Positions 4,303 through 64,000 of a stretch of DNA of 64,000 nucleotides are shown here, piece after piece. The stretch is from the NCBI GenBank assembly GCA_965198185.1, contig CBDAOU010000001.1, forward strand, positions 636,310-700,309. Reading direction: 5' to 3'. Position 1 is the first letter of the stretch. The number at the start of each line of letters is the position of its first letter. The notes beneath the pieces are model-generated. The model was not told where the DNA came from. It saw nothing but the letters and a program-made list of their open reading frames with translations, and made no database searches. A program made the position numbers and the translations under genes. Source of the DNA: Chloroflexota bacterium. GTDB lineage: Bacteria > Chloroflexota > UBA11872.

Positions 4303-6758
<2,456 letters not shown>

Positions 6759-6762
<4 letters not shown>

Positions 6763-7313
6763 CTGACATCCCCTGCAGCGGCCCCGGTGTCAGCCGTGGG
6801 CGGTGTCCTTGGCCTCAATTGTCGCACGATAGTCGGCCTCTGGCCCTCGCCGCGGCCGAGTTGGATCGAGCTCTGGCTCATCAACTGCGCGACCTGCGCC
6901 CGCACCTCTTCCAGGTTCACACCCAGACTCTCGAGCACCCCGGGGCCGGTTCCCCCGCCCTCGCGCAGGAGCCCCAGCAGCAGGTGCTCGGTGCCGATGT
7001 AGTTGTGGCCCAGCCGCCGCGCTTCCTCGATGGAGAACTCGATGACCCGCTTCACGCGGGGCGTCAGCCTGAAATTGCCCACCATCCTGGCCTCGCCGCG
7101 GCCGATGACAAACTCCACCGCGTTTCGAACCGTGCGCAACTCAACCCCCTGGTTGGTGAGCACCTGCGCGGCGATGCCCTCGCCCTCGCGCACCAGCCCC
7201 AGCAGCAAGTGCTCGGTGCCGATGTAATCGTGGTTGAACCGCGTAGCCTCGTCTTGGGCGAAGACCAAGACCTGCTTGGCGCGCTCGGTGAGTTTATTCA
7301 GGCGGTCGTTCAC
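6759..7313 (-). CDS. stand-alone Clp N-terminal (Clp_N repeat) domain protein, a recent duplicate of the clpC 5' end
   Basis: 184 aa, ~85% identical to ClpC residues 1-150. GTG start in the same 48-nt leader context as clpC. Its TGA stop overlaps the clpC GTG start (GTGA). Confidence 0.8.
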
Positions 7314-7340
7314 CTGACATCCCCTGCAGCGGCCCCGGTG

Positions 7341-10324: not shown

Positions 10325-10417
10325 GGAGGAGTCGCATAGTTGGTCTAGTGCGGCCGCCTGCTAAGCGGTTACCGGGGGTGTCCCCCTCGGTCGTGGGTTC
10401 GAATCCCACCTCCTCCG
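10325..10417 (+). tRNA. tRNA-Ser (anticodon GCT)
   Basis: Acceptor GGAGGAG/CTCCTCC, anticodon loop CTGCTAA, long variable arm 'TACCGGGGGTGTCCCCCTCGGTC' and a T-arm 'GGGTTCGAATCCCAC'. No encoded CCA. Confidence 0.85.
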
Positions 10418-10623
10418 CCGGCAGTCTCGCTGCGGCCTAGCGCGCGTGTTTGCCGCGCGGCGGCACCCTCGGTGGATCTGCGCCGCCCCACCGATTTCGA
10501 CGCGGCTGCTGGCGATCTCCACCGCGCGGTGACGACGCTCTTACCAGCTTGCGGCACCGACGGTTCCCGCATCTCCAGCACTCGCGCAGCCGACGGTGAG
10601 GCTGCCTGCGATACTATGCATAC

Positions 10624-10881
10624 TTGTATTCACTGCAGTCGGGGACAGACCTCCTGGCGACCTCGATCCGCCTGGCTCCCGAAACCGAGGAGCGACTTCG
10701 CTTCCTCGCCGCTCAAACCGGGCGCTCCAAGGCCTTCTACCTGCGCGAGCTCATCGAAAACGGCATCGATGAGCTTGAGGACTACTACCTGGCCGCCAGT
10801 GTGCTCGAGCGCGTGCGCAAGGGGCGGGAGCGCCTGCATCCGGCCGCCGACGTGAAGGCCGACCTTGGCCTGGACGGTTGA
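10624..10881 (+). CDS. relB: RelB/ParD-type ribbon-helix-helix antitoxin
   Basis: 'TSIRLAPETEERLRFLAAQTGRSKAFYLRELIENGIDELEDYYLA' is an RHH antitoxin signature. The TTG start at 10624 is uncertain. Immediately precedes a RelE/ParE toxin. Confidence 0.65.
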   Translation: MYSLQSGTDLLATSIRLAPETEERLRFLAAQTGRSKAFYLRELIENGIDELEDYYLAASVLERVRKGRERLHPAADVKADLGLDG

Positions 10882-11131
10882 GTACACCGAGACGTCGCTA
10901 GGGCAACTGCGCAAGCTCGACAAACGCATGGCGCGGCGGGTCATCGAGTACATGGACGAGTTGGTCGCGGTCCTCGATGACCCACGGCGACGCGGCAAGG
11001 CATTGACCGGACCCATGGGCGGCTTGTGGCGTTATCGGATAGGGCGGTGCCGCGTAATCTGCGACCTTCAGGATCAGGTGCTGCGCGTACTGGTGCTGCG
11101 TGTCGCGAGGCGGGACCGGGCCTACCGCTGA
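10865..11131 (+). CDS. relE: RelE/ParE-family toxin
   Basis: 88 aa. 'LRKLDKRMARRVIEYMDEL...LWRYRIGRCRVICDLQDQVLRVLVLRVARRDRAY' is a RelE/ParE fold signature. Overlaps the antitoxin 3' end. Confidence 0.75.
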   Translation: MAWTVEYTETSLGQLRKLDKRMARRVIEYMDELVAVLDDPRRRGKALTGPMGGLWRYRIGRCRVICDLQDQVLRVLVLRVARRDRAYR

Positions 11132-11165
11132 CTCGCCAGCGCCGCCTCCCACCAGAGCGTGTCGC

Positions 11166-11570
11166 CTAGAGCCAATTCTCGACGGCCAGCCCCGGAACCC
11201 GCTCGAAGTGCCGCACGTTTCCGGTGACCACTGTCAGGCCCCGCGCGAGCGCGATGGCAGCGATGCGCAGATCGGCGTCGCCCAGGGGCGTGCCGCGCCG
11301 CTCCAGCTCGGTCCGCACTTCCCCGTAGCGCCTCGCGGCAGTGGTATCGAACGGAAGGACCGGCAGCTCCGGCAGGAGCCTGGTTTCGATCTGAGTTAGC
11401 AAGTCATCGGCCTGGGGACCCCGCCGCCGTGCTCCATAAAGCAACTCTCCCAGCGTGATGCTGGAGGTGAACTGCGACTCCGCCGGCACGGCGGCCAGCT
11501 TTGTGATCAGGCTCATCGAGGGGGAACGCTTCAGCAGATTGCTCAGGACGTCGGTATCCAGCAGGTACAT
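11166..11570 (-). CDS. vapC: PIN-domain toxin VapC
   Basis: 134 aa. 'MYLLDTDVLS' N-terminal acidic residue; PIN catalytic Asp/Glu pattern. Downstream of a Phd/YefM antitoxin with a 1-nt overlap. Confidence 0.85.
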   Translation of the reverse strand: MYLLDTDVLSNLLKRSPSMSLITKLAAVPAESQFTSSITLGELLYGARRRGPQADDLLTQIETRLLPELPVLPFDTTAARRYGEVRTELERRGTPLGDADLRIAAIALARGLTVVTGNVRHFERVPGLAVENWL

Positions 11571-11860
11571 CAGTCCTCGAGCGCCACCTCTCGCCCGGTG
11601 TCGTGCTCCCGCGCGGCATAGATGTCGTCGACCATCGCCTCGATGTCGCGGTCGTCGATGTTGCCCCAGGCGCCGATCAAGGCCAGAGCGCCACGCGGCC
11701 GCGCCACGGCCGCCCGCTCGCTCGCGATCTGTTCCAGGTCGTCCACGCTCACCAGCGCGGCCATGGGCTTGCCGCGGCGTTCGATCACGACGTGTTGTCC
11801 CTGGTAGGCAACCGCCGCCATCAGCGACGAAAGCTCGGCTTTTGCCCGCGCCACACTCAC
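11570..11860 (-). CDS. vapB: Phd/YefM-family antitoxin (VapB)
   Basis: 96 aa. 'VVIERRGKPMAALVSVDDLEQI' is the Phd/YefM signature. Its stop overlaps the vapC start. Confidence 0.8.
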   Translation of the reverse strand: MSVARAKAELSSLMAAVAYQGQHVVIERRGKPMAALVSVDDLEQIASERAAVARPRGALALIGAWGNIDDRDIEAMVDDIYAAREHDTGREVALED

Positions 11861-12182
11861 CGTTCTGGTCAGGCTTCGCCTCCGGTACTTCGAAATGGCC
11901 TGCTCACCGTCATGACCATGATGACATATAGGTCAAAAGTAATGCGCTACGCCTTGTAGCAAGCCGCCAGCTGCCCTGAGCCCTTGTCTTCGGGCGGCGC
12001 ATGGAGTCTGTCACGGCAAGAGTCGTCGGATACTGAATGGCGGCACGTCGTACACAGGCGCAGTGCTTGGCGGCGCTTCGGGCTATCTGCCAGCCCGCTT
12101 GGCAGACTTGATCTGGGTATGGAATTCGGTGTCTGCGCCCGCGAGGCCCGGACGCATCAGGCAATGGATTGTCAGTTTGTCG

Positions 12183-12476
12183 TCACGGCGCCTCGGCGAG
12201 AACAGGTTCGACGTGGATGTCGTGCGACCGCTTCATCGCCTGCGCTAAGTCGTAGGCGGCCTGCAGCTGGTACCAGGTGGCCGCGCCGCCGCCGAAGGCC
12301 TTGTCCAGGCGAATCGCCATCTCGGGTGAGATCCCGGAACGACCGTTCACGACGTCCGACAACTGCTTGCGGCTGACGCCGAGCCGCCTTGCTGTCTCCG
12401 TGACGCTCAGGTCGAGCGGCTCCAGACAGTCGAACCGCACCGACAGCCCAGGATGCGGCGGATTCTTCATGGGCAT
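12183..12476 (-). CDS. higA: HigA-like XRE-family HTH antitoxin/antidote protein (no cognate toxin seen)
   Basis: '[43 protein letters not shown]...[10 protein letters not shown]' is the HigA/VapI antidote signature. Only ~90 nt upstream and ~250 nt of ORF-free DNA downstream. Confidence 0.7.
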
Positions 12477-19863: not shown

Positions 19864-20529
19864 GTGGTTGAAAAGGAGATCGTGGCCGAGATTGAGGGCT
19901 TACAGAGAGTCATCGACGGCGCTCGCGCAGTCATCGACAACTTCCGCCCCCACATCCCCATCGACCCTGAATGGCCGGTGGTAGAGCTGGGCAAAGTCGC
20001 ACGCCTTATCAACGGACGAGCCTATACGCGGTCTGAGCTACTGAAAGACGGACCAACGCCGGTTCTGCGCGTGGGGAAATTCTTCTCCAACCGGGAATGG
20101 TTTTACTCGGACTTGCAGCTCAATGACGATAAATATTGCCGGGCCGGAGATCTATTGTACGCATGGTCAGCCTCATTTGGTCCTAGAATCTGGCACTGTC
20201 CAAGAGCAATCTTCCATTATCATATTTGGAAAATCGAAACTACTGAAGATATGAATAAGAAATTTCTCTACTACCTGCTTGATATGGAGTCTGAGAAAAT
20301 CAAAGCAGATGGTCACGGCATCGCTATGATGCACGCGACCGAATCGGGCATGGAGCGTCGCGGATTGCCTCTTCCCCCTCTTGCCACACAGCAGTCAATC
20401 GTTGCGGAACTCGATGAGGAAGAGGGCCTGATCTCCGCCAATCGCAATCTGATCGACCGATTTGAGCGTAAGATCCAAGCCGCCATCGCCCGCGTCTGGG
20501 GCGATGGCGCTAGCCGAACAGTCGCGTAA
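19864..20529 (+). pseudogene. hsdS: type I restriction-modification specificity subunit (HsdS) remnant: a single target-recognition domain flanked by conserved helices
   Basis: 'VAEIEGLQRVIDGARAVIDNF' and 'LPPLATQQSIVAELDEEEGLISANRNLIDRFERKIQA' are the HsdS conserved coiled-coil regions, bracketing an AT-rich TRD. No hsdM/hsdR, no TRD1 and no ATG start. Confidence 0.6.
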
Positions 20530-21133
20530 GCCAAGCGACGAATCTCTGACAGAGATCGCCATCCACGTCGAGGTCTCGGGCTCGGATAGCCAGGCCCATT
20601 TGCCTAGGATCTTCCCGGGCAGCCAGCCAGGCATACAGCTGTGCCCGCACGGTCTTGCTCGCGGCGAACGGCGGGTTAGGTATCTCGTCGATATACCGCT
20701 GCGAAAGCGGCCACACCGGATCGTCCGCCGGGACCATCTGGATCACGAAGTTTTCAAGCTCACCGGCTGAATGGTTGTCAGGCATCACCCAGACTCCGAT
20801 GCGGGGCCTGTCGCTGGTGCTATTGATGATGGTTCCTGACGCTTCGGGTGAGCTTGGGATGCAAACGTCCTCGTCGGCAAGGCGATCTCTTACGGCGTCC
20901 CAGCGAGCCGGGACATTGTGGTTGGCGTCTACGACGATCCCGATCGACTGACGCCCTGGAGCAAGGATGTCCGCGCCAAGATCATCCAGCAGCGTATCAA
21001 TGCCACCCTTTGGCTCAACGTGAAAGGACGTTGACGGTTCGCAGCGCTCACATATCCGCGCCACGACATGCTTCTCATCCGGACCTTCGACAATGAGCAC
21101 ACGGCTCAGCGACGCTGACCCAGGAAGCGACAC
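20510..21133 (-). CDS. DUF4276-like (Toprim/OLD-nuclease-like) protein, partner of the upstream ABC-type ATPase
   Basis: 207 aa with an N-terminal 'VLIVEGPDEKHV' (EGxDE motif, as I recall for DUF4276). Starts 4 nt after the ATPase stop. Lower GC. Confidence 0.55.
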   Translation of the reverse strand: MSLPGSASLSRVLIVEGPDEKHVVARICERCEPSTSFHVEPKGGIDTLLDDLGADILAPGRQSIGIVVDANHNVPARWDAVRDRLADEDVCIPSSPEASGTIINSTSDRPRIGVWVMPDNHSAGELENFVIQMVPADDPVWPLSQRYIDEIPNPPFAASKTVRAQLYAWLAAREDPRQMGLAIRARDLDVDGDLCQRFVAWLTRLFG

Positions 21134-21136
21134 AAG

Positions 21137-22231
21137 CTATCTGACTTCGATACCGCTTCTGGCTGCGGCCTTGAGGTTCAGCTCCGAGTACTCGACCGCG
21201 CGGACGGCATCACCGTCCCTCTCGAGTCGCACAAGGGCGGCTTCCACTTCATCGACGTCCTCCGCCGCCTGCGCAAATCCCCTCACACAGTCCCAGCCAT
21301 GTGTGGTAGCCAACACCTGCACGTTGTTCGCCTGCGCCGTCTTTAGCACCATGGTCCAGAAATCACGCTGAATCGAGTGATGGATGCCGTTTTCCACTTC
21401 ATCAATTAGCAAGAACCCGTCTTTGCAGTTGGCGAGGGCTAGTGCAACGCCGAATATGCGCATAGCTCCGTCGCCGAGACTTTTCAAGGGAACCGGACTG
21501 TGATCGCCTACAATTCTTACAAATGGACGCTGGCTATAACCGCCTATATAACGCCCGTCACTGCTAACCATGGCGATACGTTCAATCTGGTCGCCAAGAG
21601 CTGCATTCAAGGCTTGGATCGCTCGCTGCTCGTCATCGGTAAGGACCGCTCTATCCCAGAATCTCGATACAGTATTATTGTCCAAGATATCCGGGCCTAG
21701 ATATTCATAGACAATCTCATTTGTTCCTGTCATCTCTGGAATGCTTTCTCGAAATCGTTTAAGAGTGATATGCGGGTGGTCAGTTAGCGTAATGCTTCGC
21801 TCGCTACCCTGGAATTCAGCGGTCAGAAGATGTCCCATATATTCTCCAAATGCTCCCTCTTTGGCCATTGGCGTGGTAACGCATACTTTGTCGGAGCTTA
21901 TCGGCCCTACTGAAAAAAAAGTGTCAGGATGGATGGTCCTGCCGTTGAATACAGCCTTCCAATTCAATACTATGATTAGATCGCCGTCATCATCGACGCC
22001 CTCTCCGTGCTCTTGTCGGTCATACAATATCTTCGATATGACAGAGTAGTCCCCGCGTGATGCAAAAACCCTTACGGCGTCAAGCAAGGTCGTTTTACCT
22101 ACGCCATTTTTGCCGGCGAACAGCGTCACGCGACCCAAGCGTCGAATCTCAAGATCGTCGATCCCGCGAAAACCGTTAATCGACAAGCTGGGAAGGTGCA
22201 GTGCTTCGGCGGTAGCTAGTATTTTAGACAT
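21137..22231 (-). CDS. ABC-type (AAA_21/AAA_15-like) ATPase
   Basis: Walker A 'GKNGVGKTT', Walker B 'LLIDEVENGIH', D-loop/H-loop 'LATTH'. 364 aa. Noticeably AT-richer than flanking genes. Confidence 0.8.
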   Translation of the reverse strand: MSKILATAEALHLPSLSINGFRGIDDLEIRRLGRVTLFAGKNGVGKTTLLDAVRVFASRGDYSVISKILYDRQEHGEGVDDDGDLIIVLNWKAVFNGRTIHPDTFFSVGPISSDKVCVTTPMAKEGAFGEYMGHLLTAEFQGSERSITLTDHPHITLKRFRESIPEMTGTNEIVYEYLGPDILDNNTVSRFWDRAVLTDDEQRAIQALNAALGDQIERIAMVSSDGRYIGGYSQRPFVRIVGDHSPVPLKSLGDGAMRIFGVALALANCKDGFLLIDEVENGIHHSIQRDFWTMVLKTAQANNVQVLATTHGWDCVRGFAQAAEDVDEVEAALVRLERDGDAVRAVEYSELNLKAAARSGIEVR

Positions 22232-25530: not shown

Positions 25531-25559
25531 GAAGGGTCTGTCTTAGGCCCTTGGCTTGA

Positions 25560-25611
25560 CCCCAATCCGTTCGGTGACCCCTTCGACAAGCTCAGGGCGA
25601 ACGGATTGGGG
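25560..25611. repeat. REP-like palindromic element: 14-bp arms CCCCAATCCGTTCG / CGAACGGATTGGGG around a 24-nt loop
   Basis: Perfect 14-bp inverted repeat between convergent genes (ilvD stop / GPP34 stop). A second copy lies at 29620-29671. Confidence 0.7.
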
Positions 25612-29542: not shown

Positions 29543-29619
29543 GGGCCGCAGTATTTGGGAGCGCCCTGATCGATCCCGAGGAAACCTGTGAGCAAGTAGA
29601 GCCCTATGGCGTACATGGA

Positions 29620-29671
29620 CCCCAATCCGTTCGATCACCCCTTCGACTGGCTCAGGGCGAACGGATTGAGG
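29620..29671. repeat. REP-like palindromic element, second copy (one arm mismatch)
   Basis: CCCCAATCCGTTCG...CGAACGGATTGAGG between the convergent GNAT and Gfo/Idh/MocA genes. 'TAGAGCCC' occurs on both flanks (29598-29605 and 29673-29680). Confidence 0.7.
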
Positions 29672-30745: not shown

Positions 30746-31933
30746 ATGCAGCCCGTGTCCTATCAGCAGGTCCTAGCCCGGCTGGACCCCGAGGCCATCG
30801 CGCGGGACACGCTGGCCTTTGTCCAAGTTCCCAGTGAGACGGGCGCCGAGGGTGCCGGCGGCGAGTACTTTGCCGCGCTGTGCCAGCGCGCCGAGCTCGA
30901 AATCGAGATCGACCGATTCATCGCCGACCGGCCCAACGTCTACGCACGCCTTCCGGGGACCGAGCGGGGACGTCCGTTGATGTTGAACGGCCACGTGGAC
31001 ACGATTCCGCGCGGCGACAGCGATCCGCCGGAGCTGCGGGACGGCTGGGTGGTGGGGCGCGGCGCGGAGGACATGAAGGGCGGGCTGGTGGCGATGGTGC
31101 ACGCGGCGTCGGCGCTGCGGCGCGCCGGAGTGCGGCTCGGCGCGGACCTTTGGCTGACGGGAGTCGTCGGTCACGAAACGCCGGTGGGCAAGAAGGAAGG
31201 ACCGAAGCGACTGGTGGAGCGCATCCGCGCGGGCGACATCCCGGCGGCGGCGGTGATCATCGCCGAGGGTCCGCACGCCATCTGGACGGCCGGGCTGGGC
31301 GCGGCGATGTTCCGCATCACGCTGAGCAGCGCGCGGGGCATCGTGCACACGCTGCACGTGCCCTACGCCGACAACCCGGCGCGCTGGGCGGGCGCGATGC
31401 TGGAGGAGTTCGCGGCTTGGGAAGCGCGGTTCGAGGACGAGACGCCGCATCCGCTCTGTGGGCGGCAGCGGGTCGACATCGGCCTGGTCGCGGGCGGCGA
31501 CTATCCCAACCGTCTGCCGACGCCCCTCACGCTGCGGGGCACGCGGCGCTGGCGGCACGGATTGACGGCGGCGGACATTGAGTCGGAGCTGCGGGACCTC
31601 TGCCGGCGCATCGAGGAACGGTCGGGGCTGCAGGCGACGTTTTCGCTGGACGCGCCGCACGAGCCCTTCGAGACGCCCGCGGACCACGCGCTGGTGCGGG
31701 CCTTGGAGGCCGCGGCGACGACCGCCACCGGCGCCACGCTGCCACGGATCGGCCTGGGCCTGGTGACCGACGCCAACATCTACGCCAACGACGCGTCGCT
31801 GCCGGTGGTCTGCTGCGGCCCCGAGTACGCCACGGCCCACTCCGACAACGAGCGCGTGTCGGTCGAGCGTCTGCACCGAACCGCCGCGCTTTACGCGCTC
31901 GCGGCTATGGAGTTCTGCGGCGTCGAGGGCTGA
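30746..31933 (+). CDS. M20-family metallopeptidase (ArgE/DapE/acetylornithine deacetylase-like)
   Basis: 'LNGHVDTIP', 'GAEDMKGGL', 'HETPVG' metal-binding motifs. 395 aa. Confidence 0.8.
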   Translation: MQPVSYQQVLARLDPEAIARDTLAFVQVPSETGAEGAGGEYFAALCQRAELEIEIDRFIADRPNVYARLPGTERGRPLMLNGHVDTIPRGDSDPPELRDGWVVGRGAEDMKGGLVAMVHAASALRRAGVRLGADLWLTGVVGHETPVGKKEGPKRLVERIRAGDIPAAAVIIAEGPHAIWTAGLGAAMFRITLSSARGIVHTLHVPYADNPARWAGAMLEEFAAWEARFEDETPHPLCGRQRVDIGLVAGGDYPNRLPTPLTLRGTRRWRHGLTAADIESELRDLCRRIEERSGLQATFSLDAPHEPFETPADHALVRALEAAATTATGATLPRIGLGLVTDANIYANDASLPVVCCGPEYATAHSDNERVSVERLHRTAALYALAAMEFCGVEG

Positions 31934-32279
31934 CGACACGGGCCTGAAGCCGGGGAGTCGCGGTGCGCGACGAGCGGTGGAAACACGTGGACTACCGCGG
32001 CTTTGCGCCGTGGCTCTTCGACCGGGTGGACGACCCGGAAGAGCGCCACGACTTTGCCGCCGACCCGAAGTCGGACGGCTTGACTTAGTGGGAATAAGAC
32101 GTTGGGCCAAGAGATTATTCCCTTGACCAGTGGTATGCATTGCATTATCCTCCTCTAGCAAGGGAGTAGTCCATTGGTGAGGCGCATGAAATTCAACTTC
32201 ACCGTGGATGTGCGCGGCATTGATACCGATTCTCTTTTCCGGCGCCTCTACGAGGTCCGCACGCACGGTGGGCAATCCC

Positions 32280-33083
32280 ATGTCTGACCGGCGCTACACG
32301 ATGGCTAAGCCGTACTGGCGCCAGCTGCTGGACTCGGCGCGTGTCGTGCGAGGTGTCTTGGGGGCGGCGCTCGCCCTGTGGGTCATTCTGCGCATGTTGG
32401 GGATTCTCGACGCTTGGGACCTGCTGACACTCACTTTGGTCATCGCCGGTCTCGCCTGGCTGATTGACCTCGGCCCGCGCAACCCGTCCGGGTGGCTTGT
32501 GGTCGGCGCCGGCATCCTGGTGCAGGTGAGCCATCGCGGCGCGTTCAGCGGCGGCGTGCAGCTGGGCATTTGGCTGGCCTTCGCGATCGTTGCCTTGGGC
32601 GCCCTGTGGCAAAACGGGACCATCCGCACGCGTCGCACGGTGCGCTTGCGAGGGTGGAAAGACAGCCACGTGGATCTCAATTACACCGGGGGCACGCTGC
32701 GCGCCAGGGGCGACGTCCGGCGGGGCGAGATTACCTGTCGGCTGTGCGACGTCGTTGTCGATCTGCGGTACGCCGACATCACCCGTCCGCCGGCGATCCT
32801 CGATGTGACGTGCGTCGTGGGCCGGCTGGATTTGGTGGTACCGATCTGGTGGCGTGTCGGCCAAAACGTCAACACCACGCTCTCGCGCCTGGTGCTCGAG
32901 GCGCGCCTTGCCGGGGAACACGGCAGTCCCAGGTCCGGCTCGTGGATTGGGCGCATGCGGCCGGTCGGAAGCCGTAGGCGCGGCGTCCGCGAGGGCGGAG
33001 ACCCGGAGCCGGACGCGGGCTTCGTGAACCTGCTGGTGCAAGGGTCGTCGCACCTGGGCCGCATCCGGATTCGCCACACCTGA
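32280..33083 (+). CDS. membrane protein with a LiaF-like/DUF2154 beta-rich C-terminal domain, copy 1
   Basis: N-terminal TM helices, then repeated beta-strand segments 'NYTGGTLRARGDVRRGEITCRLCDVVVDLRYADI...DVTCVVGRLDLVVP'. Start at the Met at 32280 or 32301. Confidence 0.55.
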   Translation: MSDRRYTMAKPYWRQLLDSARVVRGVLGAALALWVILRMLGILDAWDLLTLTLVIAGLAWLIDLGPRNPSGWLVVGAGILVQVSHRGAFSGGVQLGIWLAFAIVALGALWQNGTIRTRRTVRLRGWKDSHVDLNYTGGTLRARGDVRRGEITCRLCDVVVDLRYADITRPPAILDVTCVVGRLDLVVPIWWRVGQNVNTTLSRLVLEARLAGEHGSPRSGSWIGRMRPVGSRRRGVREGGDPEPDAGFVNLLVQGSSHLGRIRIRHT

Positions 33084-33307
33084 CGACCGGCGTTCGCTAG
33101 GACGGGCCACTCATCGATCCTCCGGTTATTCGGAGCGCCAGCGAGGAATCTGCGGCCATCCCGGTGACCTCGATGGCTGCCGGTGGTCTGCTGCGGCCCG
33201 GAGTACGCCACGGCCCACTCGGACCATGAGCGCGTGTCGGTCGAGCGCCTACACCGGACCGCCGCGCGGTACGCCCTGGTGGCGATGGAGTCTTGCGGCG
33301 TAGAGGG

Positions 33308-33475
33308 CTAAGGCGAATCCGTCGGCGGCCAATTGCGCGACCTGCTCTCGTGCTCCTTACTGAGCCATCCGAGGTACCGGAAGACACGCCACAGCACCGC
33401 CACCAATAGAAAGAACCCCAGCGCCAGCACCACGTACACGGCGATGATCAGGATCTCGAGCGGTCCGAGCGGCAT
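33308..33475 (-). CDS. small hydrophobic protein (55 aa, one TM helix)
   Basis: 'MPLGPLEILIIAVYVVLALGFFLLVAVLWRVFRYLGW' preceded by GGAGG 6 nt upstream of the ATG. Lies in the spacer between the duplicated segments. Confidence 0.35.
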   Translation of the reverse strand: MPLGPLEILIIAVYVVLALGFFLLVAVLWRVFRYLGWLSKEHESRSRNWPPTDSP

Positions 33476-33711
33476 TTCTAACCTCCGCGTCATTGGCCTG
33501 GTGGACGCCGCACGCCGTCCAAGCTAGCGCGCCGGCGGGCTCCGTCGCGCGGTCCGACCAAATCGACGCTTTGCTAGGCTCCAAATTGAGGAGTGCTGCA
33601 TGCAATTCACCGGGCATCTGTCACGGGACGAGCGCAGGTTCAGCACCGGCGCAATGCGCGATTCCTCGAAGGCCGGTCGCACGATCCAATGCGCCCACAA
33701 GGGTCGTCCGA

Positions 33712-34515
33712 ATGCCTGACCGGCGCTACACGATGGCTAAGCCGTTCTGGCGCCAGCTGCTGGACTCGCCACGTTTCATGCGAGCGGCCTTTGGCATGTC
33801 CGTGTTCTTTTGGATCATCCTGCGCATCACCGGGGTCCTCGATATCTGGGACCTGCTGACGATGATGCTGGTGCTCTTTGGTCTCACCTGGATGAATGAC
33901 CTCGGTCTACTCAATCCGGTCGGATGGCTTGCGGTTGGCGCCGGAATCCTGGTGCAGGTGAGCCATCTTGGCGAGTTCAGCGGCAGCGTGCAGCTGGGCA
34001 TTTGGCTGGCCTTCGCGATTGTTGCCTTGGGCGCCCTGTGGCAAAACGGGACCATCCGCACGCGTCGGACGGTGCGCTTGCGGGGGTGGAAAGACAGCCA
34101 CGTGGATCTCACCTACACCGGGGGCACGCTGCGCGCCAAGGGCGACGTCCGGCGGGGCGAGATCACCTGCCGGCTGTGCGACGTCGTTGTCGATCTGCGC
34201 TACGTCGACATCACGCGTCCGCCGGCAATCCTCGACGTGACGTGCGTCGCGGGTCGGCTGGATTTGGTCGTCCCGATATGGTGGCGCGTCGGCCAAAACG
34301 TGAACACCACGCTCTCGCGCTTGGTGCTCGAGGCGCGCCTCGCCGGGGAACACGGCAGCCCCAGCCCGCGCACGTGGTTTGCGCCGATTCGGCCGGGCGG
34401 CAGCGGTAGACCCGGCGTCAGTCAAGGCGGCGATCCGGAGCCGGACGCGGGCTTTGTGAACCTCTTGGTGCAGGGGTCGTCACACCTGGGCAGGGTGCGG
34501 ATTCGCCACGCCTGA
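33712..34515 (+). CDS. membrane protein with a LiaF-like/DUF2154 C-terminal domain, copy 2 (tandem paralog)
   Basis: ~85% identical to copy 1. C-terminal halves are near-identical at the nucleotide level. Confidence 0.55.
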   Translation: MPDRRYTMAKPFWRQLLDSPRFMRAAFGMSVFFWIILRITGVLDIWDLLTMMLVLFGLTWMNDLGLLNPVGWLAVGAGILVQVSHLGEFSGSVQLGIWLAFAIVALGALWQNGTIRTRRTVRLRGWKDSHVDLTYTGGTLRAKGDVRRGEITCRLCDVVVDLRYVDITRPPAILDVTCVAGRLDLVVPIWWRVGQNVNTTLSRLVLEARLAGEHGSPSPRTWFAPIRPGGSGRPGVSQGGDPEPDAGFVNLLVQGSSHLGRVRIRHA

Positions 34516-34787
34516 CGACGGGCGGTCGCTACGACGCGTCCACCCGTCCACTTCCGGTCATTCCGAGCGCCAGCGAGGAATCTGCGGCCGTCGCGGTGAC
34601 CTCGGCGGCAGCCGGTGACTCATCCCTGCGCCTCGGGTCGAACGTCTGAGATTCCTCGCGATGCTCGGTATGACAACCGGGGCAATCGGAACGCGAGCGA
34701 AGGGACCGAGTTCCCAGGCTGCACGCAGCCCGGGCCACCGGGAAGCGTGGGCCACCGGCCGAGGCTCGAAGTTGAGATAGGAAGCGA

Positions 34788-35639
34788 TTAGCCTTCGGGC
34801 GCGATGAGGATCTCGTTGCGGGCGCGGAGGGCCAGCGTCTCGTTGTAGAGCGTGGGCGGTCGGCGTGGCAACGGCGGCGCGGTGGGCGTTTTGGATGGAT
34901 CGCGGAGCGCCCGGCGGTCCCGCCCCCGCACTTCCCACCACCAGTGCTCAGTTGCCAGCGGCTCGACCTCCCGGCGGAGAATGAACTCCGCGCGGTCCCA
35001 GGCGCTGAAGGCCGCGTGGGCCAGAAAGACCCGCGACACCATGGCGCCGTCCCACTCTTCGAGATCGGGCAGCGCCAGCGGCCCCGTGTCGACTTGAAAC
35101 TGGCCCTTCGTCCGCTCGATGTTGATCGTGCGAATCGGGTATTCCAGCGTGACGGTCAGCCCCCGCGCGCCGTCGTGGTAGGTCGTGCGGGCGTTCAAGC
35201 GTTGCCCAGCCCGCACCGCGCGCATCACCTCGCGGGTGTCGCGTGTCGGCTTCGAGCCTGAAACCACGTGGGTCGTGAAATGCGTGCCGGCGAAGCGGCC
35301 GGCGTGAGGCGTGGGGGCGGTCGGCTCGCGCTCCGCAGACGGGCGCGTGGCGATGGGGATGCCGTGCGTGCGGCTGAGCACCACCCGGAACTCCTGGCTG
35401 GGGACCTGGAACAGGTTGCGGTCGGCGATGGTGTACTCGGCAAGACAGGGTTGCAGCAGGAAGATTTCAAGCGGCGGCGCGTCATCCTCGCCGCGGATCG
35501 TGCACACGGCGTCGTAGCCGATGCGCACGTGATAAGCGTCGCCCGGCTGGCCCACGAAGCCGCCGGGGTACTTGTAGACCGGGTCCGGCCGGTGGGGCAG
35601 GTGGTCCCAGGTGAAATGCGAGCGCGCGAAGTCGATCAT
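34788..35639 (-). CDS. hypothetical protein, 283 aa, unknown family (paralog A)
   Basis: No motif I recognise. Shares 'MIDFxRSxxTW...PDPVYxYPGGFVGxPG...NLFQVP...RLNARxTY...FLAHAAF...EFILRR' with the upstream gene. Confidence 0.55.
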   Translation of the reverse strand: MIDFARSHFTWDHLPHRPDPVYKYPGGFVGQPGDAYHVRIGYDAVCTIRGEDDAPPLEIFLLQPCLAEYTIADRNLFQVPSQEFRVVLSRTHGIPIATRPSAEREPTAPTPHAGRFAGTHFTTHVVSGSKPTRDTREVMRAVRAGQRLNARTTYHDGARGLTVTLEYPIRTINIERTKGQFQVDTGPLALPDLEEWDGAMVSRVFLAHAAFSAWDRAEFILRREVEPLATEHWWWEVRGRDRRALRDPSKTPTAPPLPRRPPTLYNETLALRARNEILIAPEG

Positions 35640-36487
35640 TGGCGCACCGATTCAGAGGCCCGCAGGATGGTGTTGACCGCCGCCAATTCCCAGGTTTCGT
35701 AGTAGCCGGACGCGCGCGGGCGGGGCCGTTCGGGTTCGACTCCCGGCACGTGCCGCTCGTACCGATCACGCCCGCGCACGGCGGCCGCCCAGGCCAGGTC
35801 GTGCTCGGCCACCTCGATGCTCCGCCGCAGGATGAACTCCACGTGATCGTCGGCGGCGAAGGCCGCGTGGGCCAGGAAGACCCGATCGACTCCAGCGCCA
35901 TCCCAAGTGGTCAGGTCTGGGAGCGCCACCGCGCCGGTGCACACCTGATAGCGGCCGCCGCCGGCGTGCAGGTTGATGAGCTTTATCGGGTATTCGACGG
36001 TCACCGCGAGGCCCTGCACGTTATCTCGGTAGGTGGATCGGGCGTTGAGGCGGTCGCCCGCCAGGGAGGACGCGACGATCGCGTCGTCGGTCACGAGCGC
36101 CGCGGCATCGAGCGTGCGCACGTCGATGGCGACTCCGCGAACCGCGCCGCCGATGGGCTGCCGCCGCGTGCCCTCGTCATGCCAGCTGGGCTCGGCGGCG
36201 ATGGGGACCGTGAACGCGTCGCTGACGGCGGCGCGGAACTCGCCGTTGGGCACCTGAAACAGGTTGTCGTCGGCGATGATGAACTCGGAGCGGCAGGGCG
36301 CGGTGAGATAGATCGTGCACGCGGTACCCCGCGCCTCATCGACGATCTCGCAGCCGGCGTCGATCTGGAGTCGGCTGGTGGTGGCCTCGCCCGGCTCGCC
36401 GACAAAACCGCCCGGATAGGCATAGACCGGGTCGGGCTCGGCCCACTCGATCGTCCAGGTGATGAAGGATCGGTTGAAGTCGATCAT
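35636..36487 (-). CDS. hypothetical protein, 283 aa, unknown family (paralog B)
   Basis: ~45% identical to paralog A with the same length. Stop/start ATGA overlap at 35636-35639. Confidence 0.55.
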   Translation of the reverse strand: MIDFNRSFITWTIEWAEPDPVYAYPGGFVGEPGEATTSRLQIDAGCEIVDEARGTACTIYLTAPCRSEFIIADDNLFQVPNGEFRAAVSDAFTVPIAAEPSWHDEGTRRQPIGGAVRGVAIDVRTLDAAALVTDDAIVASSLAGDRLNARSTYRDNVQGLAVTVEYPIKLINLHAGGGRYQVCTGAVALPDLTTWDGAGVDRVFLAHAAFAADDHVEFILRRSIEVAEHDLAWAAAVRGRDRYERHVPGVEPERPRPRASGYYETWELAAVNTILRASESVRQ

Positions 36488-59516: not shown

Positions 59517-61133
59517 ATGTTGGGGCCTCAGGCAAGAGCCGTTACGGGTGTCGTATTCGCCAGGCAGCGGATGGCGAGCTTGGCGTCGCGCCGGTGGTTT
59601 CTGCCGATCGGCTCGGTGGTGAAGGACGGCGTCCTGGAAAGCAACGCCTGGAGCCTCGATGTGGCTCGCGCCGCGGTGCTGACGCTGCTGGCGGGCCTGA
59701 TCTATCTGCTTTCGTCCGGAGCCCACGCGTACAGCGTCGACGAGATCACCAACTACGCATCGGCCCGAGCGCTGGTGGAAACGGGCAGCCCGGACCTGTC
59801 AGGCGAGCAACCGTTTCCCCGCGAACAGTTGCTGACGCTGCGGCACCCGTCCATGGACAGGGTGACCGGACGCTATGGCCTGCTCTCGTGGGTGGGGATG
59901 GCACCGGCCTACCTCGTGGCTCGCTGGACCGATTCAATGCCGCCGCCGCCGTCGCCGACGTTTCCCCAACCGAGCGCGGTGCGGCCGGTGGCCGCGCTCC
60001 TCTACGCGCCGGCGATCGCTGCGCTCCTGGTGGGCGCAACCTATCTGCTTGGGCGCAACCTTGGCCTGCGACCCCGCAACGCTGCCGCGGCGGCGCTGGT
60101 GCTGGCGTTTGCCAGTCCTCTCTGGGTGTACGCGCAGGGCCTGGCCAACATCCCGCTCGCCGCGCTGTTCAGTGTGCTGGCGTTCGTCGCGGTCACCGGA
60201 TCGCGCTCGGGCTCGGGCGCATGGGCGGTGGCCGGCGGGCTCGCCGGTCTTGCCGCGCTCACGCGGACCGAATTCGTGGTCCTTGCGCCTGCGGTCGGCG
60301 CGTTGAGCGTGTTCCGCGGTGAGCGACTTTCGCGGGCCGGGCTCACCCGCGGGCTGGCGTTTGCGGTGGCATGGGCCGTCGTGGTCGTCCCGGGCATCGG
60401 GCTGTGGAACCTGTACCGAACGGGGGACTTCTTCGACGTCGGCTACCGGTCGGCCTCAATCCTCTGGCAAACGGACCGGGCCCATATCGGAATCTTCGGG
60501 GTGCTGGCCAGTCCGAGCTTTGGGCTGATGGTTTTCATGCCCGTCGCCGCAATCGGCCTGTGGGGGATGCTCGGCGCGACGTCCCGCCGGCCGATCTGGC
60601 TGACCATGCTGGCGCTGATTGTTCTCGCGGTTATCGGCTACGGGTCGTTTGACGACTGGTCCGGTGGGGTCTCCTGGGGACCTCGATACCTGACGGCCGT
60701 CACGCCGTTCTTGGCGCTAGGCATCGGCCTGGCTATGCAGGCGCCGTCAACGACCCTGGGTATGCGCCTTGTCACGCTGGGGCTGGCGGCGTGGTCGACC
60801 GGAGTTTCGGTGCTGGGCGTGCTCTTCGACTACCAATCGGGCTGGCGAAATCTCTGGGAGCACACGTCGCGTCTTGAACAGATCGAGTGGAATCCCCATT
60901 TCTCGTTGATCGGCGCCCACCTGCGGCTGGCCCGCCAGTGGGTCGACGGACTGATCGGCCCCGATCTGTTCGTGGTGCACCGGCTCGGCGCCTGGACGAT
61001 CGCCGTGCTAGCAGTGGGGCTGGTGGTGGTTCTGGGCCTAGCCGTGGCCATTGAGACCCGCAGCGTTGTGCTCGGCGGGCGGCACCGTAAGGACGCGCTA
61101 GCGGGACCGACGACGGATGTTCACGCTGGCTGA
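59517..61133 (+). CDS. polytopic membrane protein, putative GT39/GT83 (PMT/ArnT-like) glycosyltransferase
   Basis: N-terminal 'YSVDEITNYASARALVETGS' resembles the PMT/ArnT loop-1 motif. More than 10 TM helices. Start possibly at the Met at 59571. Confidence 0.55.
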   Translation: MLGPQARAVTGVVFARQRMASLASRRWFLPIGSVVKDGVLESNAWSLDVARAAVLTLLAGLIYLLSSGAHAYSVDEITNYASARALVETGSPDLSGEQPFPREQLLTLRHPSMDRVTGRYGLLSWVGMAPAYLVARWTDSMPPPPSPTFPQPSAVRPVAALLYAPAIAALLVGATYLLGRNLGLRPRNAAAAALVLAFASPLWVYAQGLANIPLAALFSVLAFVAVTGSRSGSGAWAVAGGLAGLAALTRTEFVVLAPAVGALSVFRGERLSRAGLTRGLAFAVAWAVVVVPGIGLWNLYRTGDFFDVGYRSASILWQTDRAHIGIFGVLASPSFGLMVFMPVAAIGLWGMLGATSRRPIWLTMLALIVLAVIGYGSFDDWSGGVSWGPRYLTAVTPFLALGIGLAMQAPSTTLGMRLVTLGLAAWSTGVSVLGVLFDYQSGWRNLWEHTSRLEQIEWNPHFSLIGAHLRLARQWVDGLIGPDLFVVHRLGAWTIAVLAVGLVVVLGLAVAIETRSVVLGGRHRKDALAGPTTDVHAG

Positions 61134-62530
61134 TGCGTTGGGGACCGAGCAGAGATGGGCGGCCGCGGGCGGACGCTTGCCACGAGGAGGACTGGAATGA
61201 GGGTGATCATGGTCAGTGCGATGACTAGGTCCGCCGCCAGCAACCACCAACGCGGATCGGTGGTGAGAAGCCGCCATATCGCGGCCAGCTTGCTCAGGGT
61301 TGGCTCGGGCGCGCTGTAGGCCACGAATTCCAGGTTCTGGTCCGGCCACGCCAACGCGCCGTTGATCCAGAGCCGGCCATCCGCATAGCGATCACCTTTC
61401 GTCGCGCCAACGCCAAGCTCGGCGCCGGTCTGGACATCGGCCGTTACCTGTAGGGCCAGCAGCTGGCCCTCGGCGGCGCTGACTGGCGGCAGAAGCTCAA
61501 TGTCTTTCCAGCGCGGGCAGTCACCAGCCGGGACCTCGACGGACCCTTCAGCATGAGTGCGGTCTGGCGCTTCGAGGGGGGTGACGCGAACCGCGACCGT
61601 CGCGGGACCGCCCCGCTCGCAATTTGACAGAAGGAGCCTGATGCTCTGCACGGGCGTGGCGGGCATGCGGAGCTCCTGAACCACAGCTTCGTGCCGCTGG
61701 AGGCTCAACCCAAAGGCGCCCGAGCGCATGTTTGGGGCCAGCGCCTCCGCCAACGGCGCACGGAAGAGGAAACCCACCGCAAGGCCGCCAAGCACGGCCA
61801 GCGCCGCGATCGACGCGACGAGCGACCGGTGCCAGCGGCCGCCGAAGAGGGGATAGGGCGGCAGACGTCCCTCTCGCAACACGATGACCGCGCTCAGTCC
61901 AATCAGCAGCGTTCCGCTGTACTCCAGGGTCTCTTCGACCACGAAAGCCAACGCCAACGCTCGCCCGCCGAACAGCCACTGATCAAGCGCATCCTGCACG
62001 AGCGCCAACACCCAGCAGGCGATCCCGAGCGTCAGCGGCGCGCGGGTCGCCGGCCCGCCCAGCCCGTTGCGGACGAAGATCCACATCGCCAGCACAAACG
62101 CGACGACCAGCGGACTCACCAGGACCTGCCACGACAGGCCCAGGCGTTCGGCGTGCCCGACGACCGAGATAGGACCAGCCCTCTTGAAGTCAAAGAGCTC
62201 TCCATAGGTCAACGCCGCCGCCGTCAGCGCCAGCGCGGCCCAGCCCCCAACGGCAATCCAGCCGGCCGAGCGGCGGCGGCTGATCACGGCCGCGGCGAGC
62301 GCAAGCACCGTCACGCATGCCAAAGTGGCGGCGGCCACCGAGTTCGCAATCGTGCCTTCGCTGTTGGCGTCGAGCCGGCCCAGGGTGGCGTCCCAGGGCG
62401 GGAGCAGCGCCGGGAATGCCAGGCTGAAAAGATGGGTCCCGACGTAGCCGCCCCACCAGAAGGCCACCACGCCCAGCAGCAGCAGCCGTGCAGTGCAACC
62501 CACCAGCCGCCAGGCAGAGCCTCGGGTCAT
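61121..62530 (-). CDS. membrane protein (about 9 TM) with a C-terminal extracytoplasmic domain, paralog 1
   Basis: 469 aa. N-terminal TM bundle then a soluble domain 'VRVTPLEAPDR...GDCPRWKDIELLP...GATKGDRYADGRLW'. Confidence 0.6.
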   Translation of the reverse strand: MTRGSAWRLVGCTARLLLLGVVAFWWGGYVGTHLFSLAFPALLPPWDATLGRLDANSEGTIANSVAAATLACVTVLALAAAVISRRRSAGWIAVGGWAALALTAAALTYGELFDFKRAGPISVVGHAERLGLSWQVLVSPLVVAFVLAMWIFVRNGLGGPATRAPLTLGIACWVLALVQDALDQWLFGGRALALAFVVEETLEYSGTLLIGLSAVIVLREGRLPPYPLFGGRWHRSLVASIAALAVLGGLAVGFLFRAPLAEALAPNMRSGAFGLSLQRHEAVVQELRMPATPVQSIRLLLSNCERGGPATVAVRVTPLEAPDRTHAEGSVEVPAGDCPRWKDIELLPPVSAAEGQLLALQVTADVQTGAELGVGATKGDRYADGRLWINGALAWPDQNLEFVAYSAPEPTLSKLAAIWRLLTTDPRWWLLAADLVIALTMITLIPVLLVASVRPRPPISARSPTHQPA

Positions 62531-62743
62531 CGGGCGGTTGGTCGGCTCATGTCAGGCGGCACTGGCGCGTCTTGGGCGCTCGGGCGGATGGCACGCACTG
62601 CTGAGCCTACAGCGGGCGGCGCACCGAAGCCGGCGAGACGACGCCACCCGCCGCTCCATCTCGGCGGAGCCAAGCGCTGAGATGGAAGCGAGAACTGCCC
62701 ATGAGCCCTGTGGACGTGCCCCATCGGATCCGGCCACGGCTAT

Positions 62744-64000
62744 TCACGCTGGCTGATGCGTTGAGGAACGAGCAGCGATGGGCCGCAACGGGCGGAGGCT
62801 CACCACGAGGAGGACTGGAATAAAGATGATCATGGTCAGCGCGACGGCGGCGTCCGCCGCCAGCAGCAGCCAGCGCGGATCGGTGGTGAGAAGCCGCCAT
62901 ATCGCGACCAGCTTGCTCAGGGTCGGCTCGGGCGCGCTGTAGGCGACAAACTCCAGGTTCTGATCCGGCCAGGCCAACGCGCCGTTGACCCAGAGCCGGC
63001 CATCCGCATAGCGATCGCCTTTCGTCGCGCCAACGCGAAGCTCGGCGCCGGGCTCAACGTCAGCCGCTACCTGCAGGGCCAGCAGCCGGCCCTCGGCGGC
63101 GGTGAGTGGCGGCAGGAGCTCAATGTCTTTCCAGCGCGGGCAGTCACCTACGGGGACCTGGACCGACCCCTCGGCAAGGACACGGTCGGGCGCCTCGAGG
63201 GGGGTGACGCGAACTGCGATCGTTCCCGAACGACCGGTTGGCTGACAATTCGACAGGAGCAGCCCAACGCTCCGCACCGGTGTGGCGGGCATGCGGAATT
63301 CCTGGACCACGGCTTCCTGCCGGCTGAGGCTTACGCTGAAGGCGCCCGCGCGCGTGTAGGGCGCCAGCGCCTCCACCAACGGCGCGCGGAAGAGGAAACC
63401 CACCGCAAGGCCGCCAAGCACGGCCAGCGCCGCGATCGACCCAACGAGCGACCGGCGCCAGCGGCCGCCGAATAGGGGATACGGCGGCGGATGGCCCTCT
63501 CGCAACACGATGGCCGCGCTCAGCCCAATCAGCAGGGTTCCGCTGAACTCCGCGGTTTCTTCGAGCACATACCCCAGCGCCACCGCTCCACCGGTGGGCA
63601 TCCACCGCCCGATCGCCTCCTGCGCGAGCGCAAACACCCAGCAAGCGACTCCGAGCGTCAGCGGCGCGCGGGCAGGCGGCACGTCTAGACCCTTGCGGAT
63701 GAAGATCCACATCGCCAGCACGAATACGACGACCAGCGGACTCACCAGAACGGGCCATGGAAGCCCCACGCGTCCCGCCTGCTCGAAGAGAGAGATCGGA
63801 CCCCGCTCTTTGAACTCGGCAAGCTCCTCGAAGGTCAAGGCCGCCGTCGTCAGGGCCACCGCAGCCCAACCGCCAACGGCAATCCAACCGGCCGAGCGGC
63901 GGCGGTTGACGACGGCCGCGGCGACCGCGAGCAGCGTCACGCACGCAAAGGTCGCGGCGGACACCGTGTTCGCAATCGTGCCTTCGTTGTCCGCATCCAA
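62744..64000 (-). CDS. membrane protein, paralog 2 (N-terminus beyond the window end)
   Basis: ~80% identical to paralog 1 over 418 aa. Shares the upstream leader. Runs off the window. Confidence 0.6.
   Translation of the reverse strand: MDADNEGTIANTVSAATFACVTLLAVAAAVVNRRRSAGWIAVGGWAAVALTTAALTFEELAEFKERGPISLFEQAGRVGLPWPVLVSPLVVVFVLAMWIFIRKGLDVPPARAPLTLGVACWVFALAQEAIGRWMPTGGAVALGYVLEETAEFSGTLLIGLSAAIVLREGHPPPYPLFGGRWRRSLVGSIAALAVLGGLAVGFLFRAPLVEALAPYTRAGAFSVSLSRQEAVVQEFRMPATPVRSVGLLLSNCQPTGRSGTIAVRVTPLEAPDRVLAEGSVQVPVGDCPRWKDIELLPPLTAAEGRLLALQVAADVEPGAELRVGATKGDRYADGRLWVNGALAWPDQNLEFVAYSAPEPTLSKLVAIWRLLTTDPRWLLLAADAAVALTMIIFIPVLLVVSLRPLRPIAARSSTHQPA

Follow-up and report, generated by a model that had tools for sequence, protein, structure and literature searches.

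A tandem duplication of LiaF-like membrane-protein genes and its probable birth-and-death history in uncultured Chloroflexota

LiaF of Bacillus subtilis and VraT/YvqF of Staphylococcus aureus are proteins of about 240–270 amino acids (aa) in which four N-terminal transmembrane (TM) helices are followed by a beta-rich, predicted-cytoplasmic domain, and the two proteins described here share this plan. The combination of a LiaI-LiaF-TM domain with a Toastrack domain is found in many gene neighbourhoods without LiaRS, and membrane-anchored Toastrack domains without PspA and without a two-component system have been described and are widespread (Ravi et al., 2024, PMC11237479). In this work, a 64,000-nucleotide (nt) stretch of DNA from a Chloroflexota bacterium (contig CBDAOU010000001.1, positions 636,310–700,309; hereafter the window) was analyzed, in which two LiaF-like genes stand in tandem behind an M20 peptidase gene. 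Taken as a whole, and with considerable confidence, we consider the locus best explained as a genuine, evolutionarily old tandem duplication with later birth-and-death, which has yielded divergent LiaF-type proteins. The features that carry this explanation are the following.

30746–31933, + strand: M20/ArgE-DapE-type peptidase gene, 395 aa, source of the duplicated tail (Pfam Peptidase_M20, E = 8e-26; NCBIfam ArgE/DapE family)
31798–31807, + strand: microhomology GCTGCCGGTG, left boundary of unit 1, inside the peptidase gene (from sequence and alignment)
32280–33083, + strand: LiaF-like gene copy 1, paralog clade A, 267 aa, four TM helices, then a beta-rich C-terminal domain
33084–33185, + strand: tail 1, with only the left hairpin arm (33121–33152), ending in the junction decamer
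33176–33185, + strand: junction decamer, identical to GCTGCCGGTG (from sequence and alignment)
33176–33311, + strand: peptidase 3' remnant, 88% identical to 31798–31931 (Pfam Peptidase_M20 positions 172–205 of 206, E = 0.043)
33712–34515, + strand: LiaF-like gene copy 2, paralog clade B, 267 aa (P0009, residue-for-residue identical in the alignment)
34516–34680, + strand: tail 2 with the complete long hairpin (34553–34680), between convergent genes
34608–34617, + strand: right-boundary microhomology GCAGCCGGTG, a 9/10 match, in the loop of the hairpin

By repeat search and pairwise alignment, two head-to-tail units were delimited, unit 1 (31808–33185) and unit 2 (33186–34617). In each, the final ~134 nt of the M20 peptidase gene are followed by a spacer, a membrane-protein gene of 267 codons and a tail of ~100 nt. 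The peptidase tail (31798–31931 versus 33176–33309) is 88% identical between the units. The LiaF-like genes, both of them intact 267-codon open reading frames (ORFs), show 86% nucleotide and 81% amino-acid identity, and the post-gene tails (33121–33185 versus 34553–34617) are 89% identical. The spacers (31934–32279 and 33312–33711) are not alignable except for a short island near small upstream ORFs. A first-pass annotation, made from the letters of the window, had proposed a tandem segmental duplication with a peptidase 3' remnant, and had put the recurring peptidase tail at ~85% identity. The duplicated post-gene tail was absent from it, and it is this tail that locates the junction. The duplicated segment starts 126 nt short of the peptidase stop codon and ends ~100 nt past the LiaF-like gene, and the junction is a 10-nt microhomology, GC(T/A)GCCGGTG. 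The left breakpoint in the peptidase gene reads ...GCGTC GCTGCCGGTG GTCTGCTGCGG..., the right breakpoint 3' of copy 2 reads ...CCTCGGCG GCAGCCGGTG ACTCATCC..., and the hybrid 3' of copy 1 reads ...CCTCGATG GCTGCCGGTG GTCTGCTGCGG.... The proposed duplication is thus borne out, with similarity far beyond chance and a junction that recurs in independent public contigs, and every coordinate given for it was right to within a few bases.

The exact copy-1 protein is also encoded on three further contigs of one public sample (L001–L003, ERZ25067264), all of which carry the remnant, a small ORF on the opposite strand and the second copy. The same junction and gene order were found on contigs of five further assemblies as well, and the junction is identical in the window, L005, L009, L010, L012 and L015. 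In L004 and L011, the junction has been altered by a secondary deletion that lies between two short stretches of similar sequence. In relatives labelled Chloroflexota bacterium, which come from other samples and metagenome-assembled genomes, the gene order is GFO/IDH/MocA oxidoreductase, M20 peptidase, LiaF-like gene(s), two convergent genes for 283-aa proteins, RecJ and RelA. Copy number was surveyed by tblastn over 18 loci. One copy is present in the distant genomes L006/L018, L008 and L017 (59–62% identity) and in the closer L013, L014 and L016; two are present in the window, L001–L005, L009, L010, L012 and L015, and three in L011. In single-copy L006 and L008 the gene is separated by only 22 nt from the convergent gene, stop to stop. 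A neighbour-joining tree resolved three paralog clades with the distant single-copy genes as outgroup: clade C (L011_c1 and L015_c1), clade A, which includes copy 1 of the window, and clade B, which unites copy 2 of the window with the single copies of L013, L014 and L016. Copy numbers of one to three together with three paralog clades imply that tandem duplication took place at least twice and that copies were then lost differentially. The duplication is therefore ancient and common to several genomes of an uncultured Chloroflexota group, not recent, and it represents the usual course by which gene families evolve, not a novel type of system. In L002, a 2-nt insertion joins the upstream ORF in frame to copy 2, and the gene is called as a 305-aa product (11321–12238). 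Insertion sequences also occur at these loci, namely a DDE_Tnp_1 transposase gene between the peptidase gene and copy 1 in L005 (5307–6260) and, in L009, a transposase gene of the IS481 type (rve) behind copy 2 (10346–11518). The region is a hot spot for rearrangement.

We propose the following history. The ancestral locus would have consisted of the M20 peptidase gene, one LiaF-like gene and the hairpin, followed by the two convergent 283-aa genes. The segment ending in the hairpin loop was then duplicated, and the microhomology at the join suggests illegitimate recombination; the outcome was a functionless peptidase tail between two complete LiaF-like genes. Later birth-and-death gave between one and three copies in clades C, A and B, of which the window keeps A and B, and insertions and deletions reshaped the spacers. 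Short gene-conversion tracts homogenised the 3' two-thirds of the genes, and the first two TM helices remained distinct. Copy 1 is probably driven by a conserved promoter beside an inverted repeat, and copy 2 also has the proximal leader found before nearly all family members. Several points weigh against this account. Between the remnant and the functional tail there are 12 synonymous and 4 nonsynonymous changes (dN/dS, the ratio of nonsynonymous to synonymous substitution rates, ~0.08); for an old pseudogene the remnant looks too well preserved, and a simple single-event history therefore does not explain everything. In direct hmmscan searches, the matches of copy 1 to LiaF-TM (E = 0.055, 14.7 bits against a cut-off of 27) and LiaF-like_C (E = 0.099, 13 bits against a cut-off of 29) stay below the gathering thresholds, copy 2 has no Pfam match at all, and the LiaF-like proteins have no match in NCBIfam. 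The top Foldseek match in the Protein Data Bank (PDB), 4QRK in both searches, is not significant (E = 0.53, then 0.074; template-modelling score 0.23–0.28). The promoter, the co-transcription and the role of the hairpin are all things that we infer from the sequence, and the function suggested for the proteins is read from family membership alone.

The preservation of the remnant bears most directly on the strongest alternative, which involves a further small feature of spacer 2.

33308–33493, − strand: small ORF with one predicted TM helix, 61 aa from the first ATG; 33308–33475 (codons 33311–33475), 55 aa from the conserved ATG

In that alternative, unit 2 (remnant, small ORF, leader and copy 2) does not descend directly from the in-place duplicate but was introduced, or replaced, through recombination with a related lineage; in the donor lineage the stretch would have lain directly behind a functional peptidase gene, so that the divergence between tail and remnant accrued while both were coding. 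We regard this as possible, yet clearly the less probable history. The remnant, which had been described as in frame with nothing, still has an open frame of 42 codons (33183–33311, a predicted ORF only), and an intact frame with 12 synonymous versus 4 nonsynonymous changes is what such a replacement would leave. It is also nearer to the functional tails of L005 and L008 (92%) than to the window's own tail (88%), and the divergence of copy 2 from its L005 ortholog (synonymous divergence, dS, 0.27) is about double that of copy 1 from its own (dS 0.13). The orthologous remnants are more decayed: those of L005 and L010 carry single-base deletions, those of L009 and L012 a 3-nt deletion that keeps the frame, and that of L015 an in-frame stop.

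A related arrangement is seen in L019, where a full-length peptidase 3' end is directly followed by spacer-2-type sequence with the small ORF and by a copy-2-like gene. The stop codon of the small ORF overlaps there with that of the peptidase gene, whose 3' end is intact over at least 385 nt and runs off the contig; in the window it overlaps with the stop codon of the remnant. L019 shows that tail and remnant do recombine in the population, so that the remnant may plausibly have been refreshed from a functional tail in recent time. On the other hand, L019 is only 78% identical over the stretch and is thus not the donor, the counts come from only 134 nt, and the junction is the same in L005, L009, L010, L012 and L015; the duplication itself therefore happened once, and early. 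The small ORF is called as a 55-aa gene in L001–L003, and its only homologue is P0094 in L019 (732–887, 51 aa, 75% identical). Between the two there are 17 synonymous and 11 nonsynonymous differences (proportions of sites, pS 0.42 and pN 0.10) and an in-frame indel, which points to a real single-pass membrane protein of 51–55 aa. Thus, it is probably a genuine small membrane-protein gene, otherwise an orphan. The 55-aa opposite-strand ORF of the first-pass annotation was therefore present at that length from the conserved start, and the ORF proper extends to 61 aa.

The age of the tandem duplication also shows in the synonymous divergence of the two copies, which is unequal along their length. 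By Nei–Gojobori estimates, copy 1 and copy 2 differ over the whole gene with dS 0.33 and dN 0.11 (dN/dS 0.34), and segment by segment as follows.

Codons 18–75, TM1-TM2: dS 0.68, dN/dS 0.49
Codons 76–115, TM3-TM4: dS 0.10, dN/dS 0.33
Codons 116–208, beta core: dS 0.25, dN/dS 0.08
Codons 209–246, loop: dS 0.45, dN/dS 0.39
Codons 247–267, last strands: dS 0.50, dN/dS 0.16

The dS of TM1-TM2 is likewise high (0.6–0.9) between the paralogs of L004, L009 and L010. Compared with their own orthologs, copy 1 (dN/dS 0.20–0.43) and copy 2 (0.22–0.32) are each constrained, so both appear functional; judged by these ratios, both copies are under purifying selection and appear to be still in use. It had been claimed that the C-terminal halves of the two genes are almost identical. 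This holds for approximately nt 226–630 (88–97%) and fails for the last ~170 nt (73–90%), and the description was incomplete, since the event is ancient and shared and the identity is due to purifying selection plus gene conversion. Purifying selection alone would be a simpler cause, and the very low dN/dS of the beta core (0.08), a domain conserved family-wide, speaks for it, as does a dS that is nearly equal when the gene is cut into halves (0.34 versus 0.31). We nevertheless think it rather improbable, because the finer segments differ several-fold in dS (0.68, 0.10 and 0.25) and because, over codons 75–150, the third positions of copy 2 are nearer to copy 1 (4/70 differ) than to its own L005 ortholog (8/68). 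In other genomes, 18–36% of third positions differ between the copies over the same codons. Moreover, near-identical patches between paralogs lie at a different position in each genome (nt 1–90 in L005, 406–495 in L010, 451–540 in L009 and 496–585 in L004), and in a tree of codons 111–210 copy 2 of the window groups with clade A. A uniform dS along the gene, and hence the absence of gene conversion, was considered from the two-halves estimate and given up once the finer segments and the orthologs were compared. Read from these substitution patterns, the identity reflects strong purifying selection on the beta domain together with patchy gene conversion over the 3' two-thirds, which TM1-TM2 escaped.

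The assignment of the products to the LiaF type, which the first-pass annotation had made, was upheld by remote-homology methods only. With a word-indexed search, just 22 close relatives came up, and no Pfam domain was recognised in any of them. When 1.84 billion representative proteins were searched exhaustively with the family profile, 73 matches were obtained, and among the 44 distant matches of ~220–270 aa, LiaF-TM (PF22570) was recognised in 42, LiaI-LiaF-like_TM1 (PF18917) in 39 and LiaF-like_C (PF09922) in 38. When the family profile was aligned with that of these distant relatives by hhalign, the probability was 99.85% (E = 1.6e-30) over 221 columns covering both domains, and the alignment includes the motif DLR.A....PA.LDV....G...L.VP..W.V. 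The N-terminal four-TM LiaI-LiaF-TM domain is thus recognised at the profile level, and the C-terminal DUF2154/LiaF-like_C domain through a transitive link, also at the profile level. An AlphaFold2 model from 19 close homologs reached a mean confidence (predicted local distance difference test, pLDDT) of 60 and gave no usable fold match. With 55 sequences, pLDDT rose to 74 overall, ~80 in the TM helices and 88–91 in the beta domain; the model has a short helix (12–18), four TM-length helices (20–111), a beta-rich domain and a disordered insert (208–246). 4QRK belongs to the pair of structures cited as the definition of the Toastrack fold, under which DUF2154, DUF4097 and DUF2807 are brought together (PMC11237479), and the next Foldseek matches were other beta-helix proteins. 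Segments rich in Arg and Lys lie before TM1 (DRRYTMAKPYWRQ) and after TM4 (TIRTRRTVRLRGWK), and with an even number of TM helices the C-terminal beta domain is predicted to be cytoplasmic. Conserved cysteines specific to the clade were found at C153 and C156 (CxxC) and at C178.

It could be objected that these are unrelated small membrane proteins with a beta-rich tail, as nothing exceeds the thresholds in Pfam or NCBIfam, the family profile finds only chance matches to small membrane proteins among PDB sequences, and the fold match is not significant. We consider this very improbable, since the exhaustive search reaches proteins that Pfam itself recognises as LiaF-TM plus LiaF-like_C, the profile alignment extends over both domains and their conserved motif, and the two sub-threshold matches of copy 1 are to these very families in the correct order. 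The sequence comparisons thus support both products as divergent LiaF-type proteins with a LiaI-LiaF-TM domain and a DUF2154/Toastrack domain that is predicted to be beta-helical, and about twenty "hypothetical" proteins of uncultured Chloroflexota can be labelled accordingly. An assembly artefact, that is, a single-copy locus wrongly expanded or two strain haplotypes stitched together, could be suspected in a metagenome-derived window with strain variants of the locus co-occurring in one sample (L001–L003), but its probability is negligible and we treat it as excluded, because the copies, with 14% nucleotide divergence and wholly unlike spacers, cannot be a collapsed or expanded repeat, the junction and gene order recur in three more contigs of the sample and in five other assemblies, and the orthologs of each copy form separate clades across genomes.

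The regions upstream of the two copies contain the following elements.

31963–32088, + strand: 41-codon fragment resembling the C-terminal end of a sulfatase/PehA-type hydrolase (NCBIfam PehA positions 435–469 of 506, E = 9e-4; choline-sulfatase, E = 0.05)
32064–32285, + strand: distal element D, one per locus and always before the first copy, aligned with nine relatives at 77% mean column identity
33541–33711, + strand: proximal element P, before 18 copies, including those of the distant single-copy genomes (protein 59–62% identical)

The spacers had been described as diverged. They are indeed not alignable, though through insertions and deletions rather than by drift: the proximal leader is deleted before copy 1, the sulfatase-like fragment sits in spacer 1 and the small gene in spacer 2. 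The sulfatase-like fragment occurs only in the window's own lineage (positions 1–130 of spacer 1 have no match in L004, L005 or L009) and is probably debris of a deleted gene. Element D contains the inverted repeat GGGAATAA (32090–32097)/TTATTCCC (32115–32122), which occurs once in the window, and directly after it a sigma-70-like promoter, TTGACC (32123)-17-TATCCT (32151). In this region the promoter scan gave three sites where 0.3 were expected, and 9/10 loci retain the −35 hexamer. The promoter-like patch with an inverted repeat that had been noted in this spacer is thereby supported, both by a sigma-70-type match adjoining the repeat and by conservation in nine related loci. D also carries a conserved leader and a 33-codon upstream ORF (32186–32287) whose TGA overlaps the ATG of copy 1.

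Element P has the invariant core TTGCTAGGCTCC-N5-GAGGAG-N6-ATG (also written TTGCTAGGCTCC...GAGGAG...CATGCA), found once in the window at 33570–33600 and at homologous sites in 17 related copies. RNAalifold predicted a hairpin at 33572–33600 (stem GCTCC/GGAGC, one compensatory pair) that would cover the ribosome-binding site; the core could act as such a hairpin or could equally be an extended −10 promoter (TGnTAnnnT). P also carries a 40-codon upstream ORF (33600–33719) whose TGA overlaps the ATG of copy 2. Before copy 1, P is deleted in the window and also in L004 and L010, and D is therefore fused directly to the start codon. The two upstream ORFs were rejected as conserved peptides: they show no codon periodicity (variable columns 13/14/16 and 13/13/15, against 34/24/70 in the beta core), and in some relatives the start codon is lost or a stop is present. 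The TGA/ATG overlap arises because codons 2–3 of the gene itself (Ser/Pro-Asp) create the TGA. Neither the inverted repeat nor the leader core belongs to a local regulon, each being present only once in the window, and an Rfam scan of 31500–35000 (E ≤ 1) gave no match, so that no known riboswitch or small RNA was recognised in either spacer.

The hairpin in tail 2 has a minimum free energy of −90.3 kcal/mol (z = −2.4; 2/200 shuffled sequences fold as well), and tail 1 folds no better than shuffled sequence (z = +0.56). Only the left arm follows copy 1 because the right breakpoint lies in the hairpin loop, and with the left arm alone nothing obvious halts read-through into copy 2; we infer that copies 1 and 2 may be co-transcribed from the D promoter. 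A terminator scan of 31800–34900 found no intrinsic terminator. The hairpin was also considered as a dispersed repetitive extragenic palindromic (REP) element or miniature inverted-repeat transposable element and rejected, as its arm occurs only at the two duplicated sites in the window.

By analogy with their family, the proteins may be anchored in the membrane as sensors of, or scaffolds for, envelope or membrane stress. They would operate with no LiaS/LiaR pair next to them, and the paralogs differ mainly in TM1-TM2. It is a doubtful but conceivable extension that the locus is an array of one to three LiaF-type sensors without a two-component system, in which selection keeps TM1-TM2 different and conversion keeps all other parts alike, the cytoplasmic Toastrack platform among them, so that different cues or mixed oligomers would act on one common cytoplasmic partner. 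Equally doubtful is that this partner is the M20 peptidase, a 283-aa protein or, in this lineage, the 55-aa protein, with the leader hairpin as a shared regulatory switch. The locus would be of wider interest only if TM1-TM2 are indeed kept different on purpose, or if the leader is a switch.

The neighbours of the LiaF-like genes are conserved. The M20 peptidase gene lies upstream in every fetched locus that reaches that far, and the following pair accompanies the LiaF-like gene in every related locus that extends to it.

34788–35639 and 35636–36487, − strand: two convergent paralogous genes for 283-aa proteins, 47% identical

The 283-aa proteins have no match in Pfam, NCBIfam or PDB sequences. 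Elsewhere in the window, a second tandem duplication of ~1.6 kb (61095–62551 and 62718–64000, 85–87% nt identity) was observed. It covers two ORFs on the minus strand, one of 476 aa and one that leaves the window after at least 418 aa, and neither matches a Pfam family. A partial-gene tandem duplication lies beside clpC (6293–6592 and 6844–7143, 82% identical), where a 193-aa ORF of Clp_N repeats only (6759–7340, −) stands directly upstream of the full ClpC gene (4303–6789, −). A 54-nt palindromic, REP-like element, GACCCCAATCCGTTCG...CGAACGGATTGGGG, has two intergenic copies that are 91% identical (25558–25611 and 29618–29671). A gene for a DUF3226 protein (20510–21133, −) adjoins one for an AAA_15/AAA_21 ATPase (21137–22231, −), an arrangement reminiscent of abortive-infection or defence modules.

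By comparing the locus with the LiaFSR and VraTSR systems, several differences become apparent. When 30 further ORFs of the window were scanned with Pfam, neither HisKA/HATPase_c nor Response_reg domains were detected, and no histidine kinase or response regulator was found among the called genes of nine public contigs in stretches of up to 8–10 kb a side. Thus, in the window and the fetched stretches the LiaF-like gene is neither adjacent to nor in an operon with genes for a LiaS kinase and a LiaR regulator. The first-pass annotation had correctly reported that LiaSR is absent nearby, but its statement that LiaF-type proteins normally partner such a system was too strong, as the architecture occurs in many contexts without one (PMC11237479); for the same reason, the absence is a difference from the Bacillus and Staphylococcus systems and not an anomaly. 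Unlike LiaF and VraT, the proteins of the window have no LiaS/VraS kinase or LiaR/VraR regulator gene (64-kb window and relatives' stretches) and no liaI, liaH/pspA or pspC gene nearby, are too divergent for the Pfam thresholds, carry the CxxC (C153, C156) and C178 in place of the usual A.FGG motif, and are encoded in a tandem array of one to three paralogs. They also resemble the stand-alone Toastrack proteins, which likewise lack PspA and a two-component system (PMC11237479), and the best, non-significant, fold match (4QRK) is to this fold. The partners reported in those neighbourhoods (PspC, HAAS/PadR, DUF2089 and ABC/GntR) were not found here, where the conserved neighbours are the M20 peptidase and the two uncharacterised 283-aa proteins. 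The locus is thus one more case of a LiaF-type architecture without a LiaSR-type system, and it opens no new question in that respect. With respect to its origin, it shares with microhomology-mediated tandem duplication followed by birth-and-death and concerted evolution the head-to-tail units, the truncated gene at the junction, the short homology at the breakpoint, the copy number that varies among relatives and the mosaic of gene-conversion tracts, and nothing essential differs. It offers a clean natural example of a tandem duplicate in which the junction cuts a neighbouring gene and a hairpin, followed by loss, re-duplication, remodelling by indels and patchy conversion. It is a textbook tandem duplication, unusual only in how legible its junction and later remodelling have remained.

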